Shown: piece after piece, positions 1,324-22,159 of the stretch
Layout: each line of letters begins with the position of its first letter
How positions within the stretch are numbered: position 1 is the first letter of the stretch
From: Lama guanicoe
Lineage: Eukaryota
Direction of reading: 5' to 3'
Length of the DNA: 64,000 bases
NCBI GenBank assembly: GCA_013239625.1
Contig: MU055744.1
Span: 1,208,355 to 1,272,354, forward strand
Translations under genes and position numbers: made by a program
The notes under the pieces: generated by a model
Database searches by the model: none
The model's input: the letters and a program-made list of their open reading frames with translations, nothing else
Told to the model about the DNA's origin: nothing

Positions 1324-1578
1324 TCACATGATCGTGCAGAACTTGGACTGCCCCGTGTCCCGGGAGACCTCGAGCTTGCTTCTGTCCCGGACTAGGATGG
1401 CCTCGTTTCCGTACTGTGAGTACCACGTGCTCCGGCTCCTGCTCAGGTACGTCCCCGGCGGCACAGATTCCAACTTCTGCTGCTGCTGCTGCCAGATCAG
1501 CAAGGACGTGTCCCGGTACCGGAGCCGGGCGTAGCCTTCAGACAGGGCTTTCTCCGCCAGTGGGACGCGGCCGCTCAT
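1324..1578 (-). CDS. BRD3OS: BRD3OS (LINC00094/SERLOC) 84-aa microprotein, single coding exon
   Basis: ATG at 1578-1576 (GTG-ATG-A, purine at -3) to TGA at 1326-1324. Translation [84 protein letters not shown] is recognised as near-identical to human BRD3OS. Head-to-head position relative to VAV2 matches human synteny. Confidence 0.93.
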
Positions 1579-2269
1579 CACGGGCCGGAGCCTTCCCTCC
1601 CCTGGGCTCCCGTGGACCAGGCCCCTCTGAGCCAGTCCTCGTGGACAGCCGCCAGCTGCTTTGCACTAAATGCACATGCTTCTCAGCTCTTGAGTTTGAG
1701 GATTCCTTACTTAACTTAATGGTGGAAATGGAAATTCAGGCCACTCGGAGACCACACCCTTATGTGAGTTCTTTGCAAGGAAACTTGAGAGGCACCTCCG
1801 AGCATTCTGAAAAGACACCTAAGACCCACACGTGAGACAGCAAGCAGGTCACCGGCGCCCCGGCCGCAGCGTTTCCCCGGGACGGCTATGTGCGTGTCAC
1901 TAGCTGTGGAGTGGACAGGGGACACGTGCCAGGTGTCTGCTGCGATTCTGACAGCGCGGCTTGGAGCACCTCATCTGAAAAGACGAACCTAGTGTCCCCA
2001 GTGAAACGGCCCCGTACAAGGAGACGGAAACTGACAGCAGCCCCTCTCAGGGCTCCCCGCTCGGCTTTCAACTCAGCAGAGGTGTGCTGACACCGGTCAT
2101 GGTTTTGGAACCAGCATTTGTCCAGTGCTTTTTTTTTTTTCTGGCTAGCCTTCAACTCTTCCCGGAGGTGATGCTGCAAACAAATAAACGTGCTGTCAGG
2201 TGTTGGGGAGAAAAGGGCCCCAACAGCAGTGGCAGAATCGCTCTTAACTCTGGGGGTCAGAGCGTCTGG

Positions 2270-2960
2270 CCACGCTGCCACCGCGCGTCGCTTCTGCAGT
2301 CGCGCGCGTCGCTTCTGCAGTCGCGCGCGCCCTGGGGATGCGCACAGGGGGCCTGGGCTTAAGAGGCAGACCTGCGCCTCAGCCCAGGCCTTCCACTAAC
2401 TAAGCGGGGGCGCGGGGTGGGGGGGCGGCGATCCCGGGGAAACCGCCCGTTGGGGCGTTAATGTCCAGACCTACGACGGAGGTCCCAAGAGCCCGACGGG
2501 ACACGGGTTCGGGGGCCCGACCTGCCCGTGCCGGGGACGCTGGTACCCCCTCCTTTCTGCTCCACGCCCCCGGGAGGCCCCTGGGCCGGAGAGGAGCACG
2601 ACGCCGGGTGAGAGCCGAGCCGGGGCGCCCCCCCCCCGCCCCGCCGCGCGGCCCCGCCGTGCGGGCTCGTCCTCCTGCGCGGCCCCGCCCTCCCCGGGGC
2701 TGCGCCCCGCGCCCCCCACCCTCCGGCTCGTGTCACCCGCGCGGTGGGGCCTCGGCGACGCGCGGACCCCGGGCTGGACGCCTCCCGCCGGGCGGCGCCC
2801 GCTGGCCGCGTCTCCATGGCAGCGCCGCAGGCATGCCGAGCCGAGCGCCGAGCCCGGGCAGGCCGGCGCCACGAGCCGGAGCCATCGATCGCCCCGCGGG
2901 GGGCCGGGGCCTCCCGCTGGGGGCGGGGCCTCTGGAGGAGCCCTGCGCCCAGTTCGCTCC
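2270..2960. promoter_or_regulatory. CpG island / promoter of BRD3OS
   Basis: Very high GC and CpG density with several GC boxes (CCCCGCCC/GGGGCGGGG), about 0.7-1.4 kb upstream of the BRD3OS ATG. Confidence 0.8.
2282..2323. repeat. Exact 21-bp tandem duplication
   Basis: CGCGCGTCGCTTCTGCAGTCG occurs twice (2282-2302, 2303-2323). Confidence 0.95.
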
Positions 2961-3339
2961 TACGTTGTTGTTGGTCTTAGCCTCGTGTTGATGGTGGTTT
3001 TGTGCTACTGCTGCTTGTGTACGTCTGCCACTGCTGTTGCTGTTCGCATTCTTGCCCCTCGTAATTGATGCAATTATTTTTCATAATTCAGTGTTGTGCC
3101 GGGGGTACTCTCTTAAAAATAGGTCTCTGACTGACTCATGTCACCCAGCCGGGCCAGGTCCCCACACTGCCATGAAAATTAAGCACTCCACCTCCAAAGC
3201 ATGCTCCAGTAACACTCTCGTTTGTTATCTGTCCTTTTCCTTACTGAAGTTTCCTTTTCACAGTTTTCCTCAAATGCTAATTAAGGAGGTCCACGTAAGG
3301 GACATTCATAGAACACTGAACCCACAACTGTAGAGTGCC

Positions 3340-3711
3340 ACTCTTTACGAGGACACAGAACATCTACAAAAACTGACCATATGCCAGACAGCCTTAAATA
3401 GACAAGATAATGTACACAGATATGGTGTATATGTGGGGTATATGGAAACACTTGTATTGTCTTTGCAATTTTTATATAAACCTAAAACTTTCCTAGATTA
3501 AAATTTAAAACCTTACTTTAAAAATGAGTGACTATGAAAATGGATATATGTATATCCATGTATGGCATTGTGCTGTACACCAGAAGTTGACACAACACTG
3601 TAAGCTGACTATACCCCAATAAAAAAAGAAAGAAAGGGAAAAAAATGAGTGAAAAGGAAAGTCACAGAGGTGAGAAGAAATTTGCAATATGTATCGCTGA
3701 TAAGGGACTTA
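3340..3711 (+). mobile_element. Cluster of L1 fragments (includes an L1 3' end with A-tail at about 3525-3645)
   Basis: AT-rich. Contains TGTGCTGTACACCAGAAGTTGACACAACACTGTAAGCTGACTATACCCCAATAAAAAAA (L1 3' terminus) and an ORF2-like GAGAAGAAATTTGCAATATGTATCGCTGATAAGGGACTT. Confidence 0.7.
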
Positions 3712-4341
3712 GGGTCCAGCTGGAAGAGGAAATCACGCCAGTGATTTGACCAGAGAGGAATTAATAGAAGAAACTGATCACTAGGTACAAAGTTGTTAAG
3801 TAGGTAACTTTCAGAATAAAATAAAGACCTCTGTAACATCTCTAGGTAGTAACTGCAGGAAGCAACTGCCACCTTAGCAGCTAAAAGACCAAAGAGAAGA
3901 GGATGGAATTATGAGAATGTAGAGACTTAAAGGAGGGACACCAAAGAGCTGAAACTCAGAGTTTTGAGGCGGGGACACCGGCAGCTGGAGCTGGTGTCTC
4001 TGCATCAAAAATAGGCTCCCAGCAGGGCCAGGACTAGACCCTGAGCAGGGGGTGCCAGCCAGCTGCTGCCCCTGAGTGGCGGCCTTGTGGATTTTGTACC
4101 CATTGGAAAAACTGCAGACTGGATTCAGCTGCTACTTCAGAAAAGGAAACGTGAAGAATTGTTGCCAGGGGACTGCACGCTGACGGGAAGCTAGCAGGGA
4201 GCAGAGAGCAAGGTCGCGCTCCCTCCTCCAGCATTCTCATCTCCAGCACCCTCTCCGGGTGGAGCCCCCTGCTCCCTGCAACACAAAGCAGAGGGCGAAG
4301 GACATTTAGATCTGCGTTAATGGGAGAGGTTTACTGGCGGC
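3712..4341 (-). mobile_element. Ancient ERVL-class LTR (LTR41/LTR33-like), probable 3' LTR of the adjacent ERVL remnant
   Basis: GGGTCCAGCTGGAAGAGGAAATCACGCCAGTGATTTGACCAGAGAGGAATTAATAG resembles the reverse complement of ERVL LTR ends. Its position is where the 3' LTR of the minus-strand pol/dUTPase remnant would be. Confidence 0.45.
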
Positions 4342-20077: not shown

Positions 20078-20281
20078 ATGGAGCAGTGGCGGCAATGTGG
20101 CCGCTGGCTCATCGATTGCAAGGTCCTGCCGCCCAACCACCGGGTCGTGTGGCCCTCGGCCGTGGTCTTCGACCTGGCACAGGCGCTGCGCGACGGCGTC
20201 CTCCTGTGCCAGCTGCTACACAACCTCTCCCCCGGCTCCATTGATCTCAAGGACATCAACTTCCGGCCGCAGATGTCCCAG
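20078..20281 (+). CDS. VAV2: VAV2 guanine nucleotide exchange factor, coding exon 1 (aa 1-68, CH domain)
   Basis: Optimal Kozak GCCATGG. Translation [68 protein letters not shown]. Donor CAG|GTGAGG, phase 0. Confidence 0.98.
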
Positions 20282-22159
20282 GTGAGGGTCTGGGCGCGCC
20301 AGAGGGGCCCTGGTCCGCGGGTGTTGGCGCCGCCAGGCGGTCCCGGGACCCTGGTCGGAGCGGCTGCTCACGGACGTCGGCAGGCGGGGGGACCGGGAGC
20401 GGAGAGGGGGCGCGTCCCAGGCCTCTGAGCCTGCTCCTCCGAGGGGCGAACCCGGGAGGCACGAAGTTGGCCAAAGTCCCCCAAACCTGGGGCGCGCATC
20501 TCTGCCTGCGGGCACTGCCTGGGAGCGCCCGGGACTGGGGCTGCGCCTCCCGGAGTGAGGGGAACCCTGGCTGTGTGCTTACCACCGCCTCCTCGTCTCA
20601 CAGGCCATGGCGCCAGGACCCAGTGAGGGTTCCTTTCGACCCCGGAGATCCCACCGGGCCGGAGGCCTCGACAGGCGTGGCATACCCCGGCTTTGCGACT
20701 GGTGGCTGGATGCCCCAGAGGATGAAGGAGCGGGCAGCTGGGCTCGGGGCGCAGCGGGAGGGGCCCGGCTGGGCAGGGCTGGGAGCTGGGAGCCCTGGCG
20801 GATGAGGGGGCTGATGGGCTGGGCGTGCCGACCCCCTTGCCGGCCTCTGTGTCCTCCTGAACCCTAGGGTGGGGGTGATGCAAGCAGCATCAGATCCTTA
20901 GGGTCGCAAACTTACTGGCATAGGGAGCCCCTTTGCTTCCTCAAGTGTGGTCTTTGTCGCGGTTGAGGCGCATGTGGCCGCGGGCAGGCAGGAAGATGTC
21001 TCCTTGGCCGGCAGGAGCTGCCTTTCTTGGCCCCTTAAAGGGAACTTGGTTAAGACTTAAGCAGAATAGAATCTCCTGTCCTACACTCCCCGGCTGTGCA
21101 ACCCCCATCCCAGCACCTTTGAAAGTGCCTTAGGTGCCCACAGGGACCAGGGGGCCACCGGAGGTCTGGCCTGTGTTCCTCCGGAGCCACCTTCCTGCTA
21201 GCCCCCGAGCCCCTTCTTCTGTGACCCTCGGCAAGTCCAAGTGGACAACGGCCATTCACAAGCATGACATCGGAAAATGGGCTGGGGGAGGGAGGGATGG
21301 AGTGAGTCACTGCTTTTCCAGGCTGGGCTGCATGGCCTCTGCCCTTTGGCTGTGATTGTGTTTCCAAGGAGATGGGGGCACCCCCCTCCACTCCAGGGAA
21401 GATGGAGGGTGGCTGCTGGCAAAGAAGAGTCCTGGGGAGAGGAAGGGGCTGCCTTCCCACTCTGTAGTGATACCCCAGCACCACGGAGGCGGGTGGCCCG
21501 GTGAGGGAGCCCTGGCCGCACTGACCTGCCTTCTGGTCCTCAGGCTCCCCTGAAGCCAGTGCCATCTTCGGGCACACTCAGCGCTAAGTAGCCCAAGGTC
21601 CTGGGGTCAGCTGTCCTGGCTGCAGGATGCTTTCACAGATCCAGTGCTCTCCTCTGCTGTCACCCTCGGTCCCTGGAGGCTGGGAAGGACTTACCCTACT
21701 TGGTGGCTGGAGGAACCAAGGGGAAGAAGGGCCGCTGAGGGCAAAGCTGGGCCTTGCGCGGGCGTGTCAGCCTCTGGCTGTGAACTGCAGGGGCTGCCCA
21801 GGCTTGCTGGCTCCTGGAGGTTCCCGACTGACTGGCAGAGAGGCTGGGGCCCAGGGCCCAGCCCGGGGTGGGTGGGTCCGCTGGGTTCGGGCAGGATCGG
21901 GGAGGAAGGGGCGCTGGCTGTGGCATATGGCTTGGCTCAGCCCCTGCGCTGGAAGCGCAGTCTTCCTGGGGTCCCTGGAGCCATCCTCGGGCCGGCAACA
22001 CTGAAGCCGGCAAAGTCCTGTCCACGACCCCTGCCCCAGGCTGGGTGAAGTGGTGTTGAGGGGGGCTGGGGAGGAGAACCAGATGGGTGAGTGTCTGTGC
22101 CTTCATGGCCACATGCTCTTATTGACACCTGGCGCTGTCACCTCCCCCGCAGTGACCAC

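Follow-up and report, generated by a model that had tools for sequence, protein, structure and literature searches.

The locus variously annotated as BRD3OS, LINC00094 and SERLOC, names that designate the same stretch of the genome, is handled as non-coding in the papers on cancer and neurology that were sampled here, in keeping with an earlier note on this DNA, which described it as studied mostly as a long non-coding RNA. The same note drew attention to a short open reading frame with a C-terminus that resembles a prenylation signal. Does the locus make a protein and, if it does, is the protein prenylated and where would its lipid take it? The chemistry of such a modification is textbook knowledge; the interest lies in what it would mean for the LINC00094/SERLOC literature. 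The siRNA used in the SERLOC study, in the text of which the word 'rescue' is absent, removes RNA and protein alike, and a protein with a lipid tail would be another explanation for the phenotypes.

The open reading frame and its 5' region

In the window (the whole stretch of 64,000 nucleotides of guanaco DNA that was analysed), the BRD3OS coding sequence occupies positions 1324..1578 of the minus strand as a single uninterrupted frame of 84 codons followed by TGA (ATG, 1578..1576; TGA, 1326..1324). The name is taken from the database names of close homologues. The 84-residue translation begins with Met-Ser and has Cys81 as its sole cysteine. The start codon stands in the context CCCGTG-ATG-A, and a candidate upstream open reading frame of three codons (Met-Cys-Ile-stop; 1666..1677, minus strand), in frame and deduced from genomic DNA, ends 87 bases ahead of it. 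Further 5' the base composition reveals a GC- and CpG-rich stretch (2250..2950, approximate limits; CpG observed/expected, 0.79 over positions 2001-4000), which is probably a promoter or first exon. A genome search found the open reading frame at one locus in the animal's own genome, and no paralogue there (one match among 11 candidates).

A protein family across Bilateria

The homologue search returned 162 homologues among 163 candidates, the best 120 of which, as listed, span mammals to teleosts with 62-95% identity. Among 1.84 billion representatives, 41 matches were found with a profile. The named distant members come from lamprey, amphioxus, Ciona, the starfish Patiria, a stick insect and four hymenopterans, and an annelid member, from Paralvinella, was obtained as cluster mate of a profile match; many other matches are unnamed contigs, and three long repetitive ones (P0145, P0164, P0169) were removed before the family counts. 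In the alignment R20, G57, N58 and C81 are invariant at approximately 30% identity, a degree of conservation that implies selection at the protein level. Compared in this way, the sequences establish BRD3OS as a bilaterian-wide protein family with a predicted CaaX box at its end, and on the same grounds its open reading frame is almost certainly translated. Neither Ribo-seq nor peptide evidence for it was found in the literature and supplements examined.

PMC9406669 had noted earlier that an 84-residue frame is predicted at this locus and that it is conserved among mammals, some amphibians and fish. Databases carry BRD3OS as an uncharacterised protein; the amphioxus records are named BRD3OS-like by NCBI, and the tunicate, echinoderm, annelid and insect members are unnamed database records. 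Pfam yielded nothing above cut-off for BRD3OS (best E, 0.21) or for 31 family members, and the ESM Atlas, with two homologues as queries, returned at a score of at least 0.9 only the family's own chordate clusters, along with a lead to DUF4802 at 0.75. A degenerate vertebrate-like copy (P0150, P0184; Logan only), which ends in CNHM and is devoid of the R-Y-x-D-T motif, is possibly a decayed retrocopy.

The C-terminal CaaX box

The last four codons, for Cys81-Thr-Ile-Met, occupy with the stop codon positions 1324..1338 of the minus strand and form a predicted farnesylation site; bases 1338..1324 read TGC ACG ATC ATG TGA, in agreement with the translation and with the CaaX box CTIM identified in the earlier note. 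C-a-a-M ends are known from K-Ras4B, prelamin A and lamin B1, and BRD3OS orthologues sample the class (CSVM, CSIM, CAIM, CVIM). With Rheb-type farnesylated proteins BRD3OS shares the terminal Cys-a-aliphatic-Met and, in the case of Rheb itself, the lack of a polybasic tract; unlike the C-a-a-M proteins, it contains no GTPase or filament domain.

The proposal of a CaaX box depended on the conservation of the cysteine at position -4 from the C-terminus. It is present in 119 of the 120 listed vertebrate homologues (C-x-x-M end in 118/120), the sole exception being an extended Arapaima model, the sister model of which ends in CSLM. For the counts of the tails a pool of 238 sequences was used (241 fetched proteins minus the three long repetitive ones), in which Cys(-4) is found in 182/192 vertebrate-type and 42/46 invertebrate-type sequences, unnamed records having been assigned to either type by likeness and one of the 182 having an incidental Cys in a frameshifted tail. 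Both core motifs are present in 228 sequences, and 218 of these terminate in C-x-x-x; of the ten that do not, eight carry the CaaX motif internally, before an extended gene model, and two are without it. Three of the eight run on with Trp directly after the Met, as if the TGA codon were read through. The gene models P0095, P0122, P0123, P0230 and P0233, which extend past, or are spliced within, the last codons with loss of the terminal CaaX, are artefacts or minor isoforms.

Because the search profiles included the tail, its conservation is inflated among the distant matches, and these were rescored with tail-free profiles. With the last 10 residues off, 13 of the 20 distant matches were recovered at E ≤ 1e-3, all 13 ending in C-x-x-x; without the last 18 residues 12/20 pass, and again all of them (12/12) end in this way. 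Cys(-4) is retained at a depth far beyond what the earlier note could tell from the sequence. In 21 divergent representatives (less than 60% identity) the linker from the Gly-Asn pair to the Cys varies between 18 and 47 residues with no change in the distance of the Cys from the C-terminus, the set having been picked from sequences with Cys at -4 so that it documents the freedom of the linker rather than the frequency of the cysteine. In the same set, a2 is I, L or V in 21/21 sequences and a1 is variable. Outside the CaaX box, Cys accounts for 0.3% of the family's core region.

The X residue is mostly M, L or V across the family. It is Met in 180/182 vertebrate sequences and Leu, the geranylgeranyl type, in 12/42 invertebrate-type ones, which indicates that it is prenylation as such that has been conserved; the established rule for X makes farnesyl the likely lipid of vertebrate BRD3OS. 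In the accessible part of the PMC9231725 supplement CTIM is called prenylated by SVM, Freq and PrePS, the last being a predictor named in the earlier note, and negative by FlexPepBind; both cleavage predictors indicate cleavage, and the positive training set includes CSVM and CLIM, which are ends of BRD3OS orthologues.

As for a second membrane signal, residues 66-80 comprise four basic and two acidic residues with no polybasic tract (family mode, net +2), and there is no upstream or second conserved Cys, so that the earlier description of the tail holds in both respects. The mean hydrophobicity is at most 0.02 in the 18-residue windows sampled, with no signal peptide or transmembrane segment by this measure, according to which the C-terminus should be cytosolic. 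The sequence revealed no amphipathic helix of note. N-myristoylation was discarded because the protein begins with Met-Ser, and a prenyl-phosphorylation switch at Ser78 was set aside in view of the lack of conserved basic residues just upstream of it. Overall, the features of the C-terminus make it very probable that BRD3OS is prenylated.

The residues ahead of the CaaX box and PDE6D

Immediately upstream of the CaaX box, just outside the segment considered in the earlier note and missed there, lies Ser78-Lys79-Phe80 (1339..1347, minus strand), with Ser at -3 and a hydrophobic residue at -1 with respect to Cys81, which matches the signature of high-affinity PDE6D cargo (PMC5512577, PMC8842248). 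Ser(-3) is found in 177/182 vertebrate and 38/42 invertebrate-type sequences; the -1 residue is F, I or V in 180/182 of the former and I, L, V or F in 39/42 of the latter; the two occur together in 176/182 and 38/42, respectively. The pair is present in 19 of the 21 divergent representatives, as compared with 1.6% expected from the linker composition, and position -2 varies, the commonest residue being found in only 5/21. In the tail-free test the CaaX box was found in 13/13 matches but the pair in only 8/13 (missing from four proteins of insects and from a degenerate copy), so that its conservation is less general than that of the CaaX box. In the hymenopteran proteins P0156, P0159 and P0165, which are without the pair, the linker is longer and includes a Y-x-K-P segment ahead of the CaaX box; Cotesia P0166 retains the pair.

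A pattern search for the tail in the animal's own genome gave 14 matches versus 12 for the control. Ten were inspected, and one of them closes an open frame of 264 residues that encodes an AMPK-related kinase domain (L006 730-1524, plus strand; last exon) and ends in S-K-F-C-S-I-L-stop. We take this exon to be that of NIM1K; with the same S-K-F-C as in BRD3OS, it provides a precedent for Phe at -1.

According to the accessible sections of PMC5512577, the residues at -3 and -1 set the affinity for PDE6D, which is tight for INPP5E (Ser, Ile), 7 nM for GRK1 (Ser, Met) and weak for Rheb (Lys, Ser). Swapping them reverses the affinity (INPP5E-KS, 697 nM; Rheb-SI, 12 nM), and the swapped INPP5E loses ciliary enrichment. 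Tight cargo is released by ARL3 only, and is enriched in the cilium given a retention signal. The -1 residues measured in these sections are Ile and Met, Phe not being among them. In the available part of PMC8842248, the pair put into KRAS increases the affinity up to 26,000-fold and leads the protein to cilia when PDE6D is co-expressed; in several invertebrate BRD3OS members the corresponding stretch is S-T-I-C, just as in this KRAS peptide. BRD3OS, with Ser and Phe, thus resembles the high-affinity cargoes INPP5E and GRK1, which combine Ser(-3) with a bulky hydrophobic residue at -1, rather than the low-affinity cargo Rheb, with Lys and Ser.

A further set of cargoes is described in PMC9857354, where Ser(-3) occurs in 12 of the 25 prenylated proteins that interact with PDE6D; NIM1K, which has this Ser, is a prenylation-dependent ciliary cargo. 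FAM219A, like BRD3OS an uncharacterised CaaX protein (prenylated) with Ser(-3), was shown to bind PDE6D, but its wild-type form was not observed in cilia, to which NIM1K and UBL3 still gained entry when mutated from S to K. Ser(-3) is therefore no guarantee of a ciliary location, and FAM219A offers a model for a protein that binds the carrier without being ciliary. The likeness of BRD3OS to INPP5E, GRK1 and the ciliary cargoes NIM1K and UBL3 is limited to the tail signature, BRD3OS having no catalytic or ubiquitin-like domain.

By analogy with these proteins, BRD3OS would probably be a tight PDE6D cargo through Ser78 and Phe80; its enrichment in the cilium can be put forward tentatively. The earlier note had suggested weak or endomembrane association: the missing second signal is in line with this view, but the Ser(-3)/hydrophobic(-1) pair points to PDE6D binding instead. 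Nothing was found in support of the nuclear-envelope association that it had also considered.

Predicted structure of the core

With the deeper alignment, AlphaFold2 predicted helices at residues 7-11 and 14-38, a hairpin formed by residues 50-53 and 61-64, and a loose tail (pLDDT, 70.0; pTM, 0.34); with the shallower one, helices are found where the hairpin stands in the other model (pLDDT, 58.5). The predicted helix 14-38 (1465..1539, minus strand) contains the conserved R20-Y-x-D-T motif with its invariant Arg, and the predicted β-hairpin (1387..1431, minus strand), present in the model from the deeper alignment only, is built around Y53-x-x-x-G57-N58. The model had no Foldseek match at E ≤ 0.001 and no VIA-align match with Z ≥ 5, a result that does not speak for a novel fold; the model is of low confidence and non-globular, and a PDB sequence search with the single protein found no match. 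Profile matches to ARL1 (E, 0.6) and to the designed Pizza6 propellers (E, 3e-4, from six 3-bit repeats) were rejected as due to chance. Short and invariant, the motifs of this extended chain suggest that the core offers a binding surface to a larger partner, which the free linker would tether to the lipid.

Proteomic datasets and literature

Prenylome data, another source indicated in the earlier note, brought no support: searched by gene name and aliases, as in all look-ups, BRD3OS has no match in the supplements of a study on Th1 cells (PMC12315405; human reference proteome) and of one on multiple cell lines (PMC7902609; UniProt April 2018), in both of which RHEB is present. The Th1 study recovered just 78 (42.6%) of the known prenylated proteins, so that this absence weighs little, though not nothing. 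In silico digestion of BRD3OS gives three good tryptic peptides, which cover residues 23-35, 36-47 and 50-64, and poor detectability with trypsin does not, therefore, explain its absence from the datasets, behind which might be low abundance or database gaps. No match was found in the accessible text and legends of the PDE6D pull-down supplement (PMC9857354), nor in the available part of an Arl13b-TurboID cilia supplement (PMC13232615), in which Inpp5e is present and Nim1k is also absent. The PMC10942399 supplement was uninformative, as no positive control was found in it. That of PMC13307568 has no row for BRD3OS, though the text of the paper names it and reports that CRISPR targeting of the gene did not kill EA.hy926 cells. 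In PMC9346484 Brd3os appears only in an expression list, and PMC13670568 does not mention it.

A search of the literature without subscription journals, bioRxiv supplements, UniProt notes and interaction databases found no publication that links BRD3OS to prenylation, a CaaX box or PDE6D. In the literature searched, LINC00094 in combination with farnesyl led to one unrelated review only, and work on prenylated CaaX microproteins or small open reading frames included none on BRD3OS by title or abstract. The accessible parts of an ESCC preprint (10.1101/2024.07.10.602928) and of PMC13604529 make no mention of an open reading frame or peptide at LINC00094/SERLOC. Thus, the CaaX and PDE6D signature of BRD3OS is apparently unreported, the 84-residue frame itself being already known.

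Proposed mechanism and alternative explanations

In the proposed mechanism, BRD3OS would make a conserved 84-residue protein with a terminal CaaX box, in which FTase would farnesylate Cys81, RCE1 would remove Thr-Ile-Met and ICMT would methylate the product, as in other C-a-a-M proteins. Through Ser78 and Phe80, as the two-residue signature suggests, the protein would bind PDE6D with nanomolar affinity and in a manner resistant to ARL2. Its release by ARL3-GTP at the primary cilium may then lead to enrichment there, a less secure step that also calls for a retention signal. The core, with its R-Y-x-D-T helix and Y-x-x-x-G-N hairpin and no compact fold, may bind a partner protein, which the lipid tail on its flexible linker would hold at the ciliary membrane. 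Farnesylated BRD3OS as a tight PDE6D cargo released by ARL3-GTP at the primary cilium is the full explanation that we favour, with a confidence just above even. The more extended proposition, namely that LINC00094/SERLOC makes an ancient farnesylated microprotein carried by PDE6D to the primary cilium and that its core binds a partner there, is on balance unlikely to hold in its entirety.

If BRD3OS is a ciliary farnesylated microprotein, the phenotypes published for siRNA and overexpression would be due in part to the protein and, to that extent, respond to inhibitors of farnesyltransferase or PDE6D; BRD3OS would be a candidate gene for cilia-related disease. It would also add an unlisted substrate to the prenylome, with a lipid tail that can be addressed by drugs, and, if the signature holds, would be a rare microprotein with a predictable carrier and destination.

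The main rival, close to the view of the earlier note, is that BRD3OS is prenylated but otherwise an ordinary CaaX protein of the Rheb type, endomembrane-associated or cytosolic, the pair serving another prenyl-binding partner, CaaX processing or a ligand of its own. The absence of both a polybasic tract and a second Cys would fit such a protein, as would its absence from the PDE6D and cilia datasets examined, the four insect members that keep the CaaX box without the pair and the statement, in the accessible part of PMC8842248, that PDE6D cargoes as a whole share no consensus motif. However, the pattern of fixed -3 and -1 positions around a free -2 corresponds to the two contacts in the PDE6D-INPP5E structure (PMC5512577, accessible sections), and the pair alone is sufficient to convert Rheb (PMC5512577) and KRAS (PMC8842248), which leaves this explanation unlikely, though far from negligible.

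Tight binding to PDE6D could also mean that BRD3OS acts on the carrier itself, competing with weakly bound cargo, KRAS and Rheb for example, and tuning their trafficking, a role compatible with its small size, the lack of a compact fold (pTM, 0.34) and of any enzyme or domain match. A genetically encoded PDE6D inhibitor related to INPP5E is reportedly the subject of PMC12703448, and would count in favour of this role. High-affinity peptides do displace the Rheb peptide from PDE6D in vitro (PMC5512577, accessible sections), but conservation across bilaterians extends to the core rather than being confined to the tail, and a stoichiometric competitor should abound in PDE6D pull-downs, in the accessible supplement of which (PMC9857354) BRD3OS was not found; competition is thus improbable as its function.

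That Cys81 of a genuine BRD3OS protein is left unprenylated in vivo, and serves instead in S-acylation, a disulfide, metal binding or a C-terminal degron, would account for the failure to detect it in two prenylomes and for the negative FlexPepBind call on CTIM in the accessible part of the PMC9231725 supplement. However, a Cys exactly at -4, an aliphatic a2 in 21/21 representatives and an X that is mostly M, L or V are the rules of prenyltransferases, and no second conserved Cys is available, making this alternative less probable still.

Finally, that the locus acts as RNA with an incidental or untranslated open reading frame, as the sampled papers imply by their treatment of it, as a mainly nuclear LINC00094/SERLOC RNA that binds TCF3 and KLF5 would suggest (10.1101/2024.07.10.602928, accessible part) and as would agree with the lack of any proteomic detection found, is highly improbable, because constraint on RNA cannot be the source of approximately 30% protein identity to amphioxus, tunicate, annelid and insect members, among which some residues are invariant and the terminus is constant. 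Functions of the RNA and the protein may exist side by side.

Neighbouring genes and minor features

A Vav-family first coding exon (window 20078-20284, plus strand; E, 1e-30 to Vav-3) lies head to head with BRD3OS, approximately 17 kb apart, in a CpG-rich stretch; presumably it belongs to VAV2, the expected neighbour. On the other side, approximately 4.3 kb to the left of the window, a Ser-rich terminal frame (L002 5324-5704, plus strand) converges on BRD3OS without overlap of the open reading frames, and we take it to be the last coding exon of BRD3, also an expected neighbour. The CpG-rich upstream region contains a perfect 21-base tandem duplication of 2.3 copies (window 2282-2329). An antisense open reading frame of 68 codons (window 1328-1534, plus strand) with a run of five Cys overlaps BRD3OS; it mirrors a Gln run of the coding strand and is likely to be incidental.
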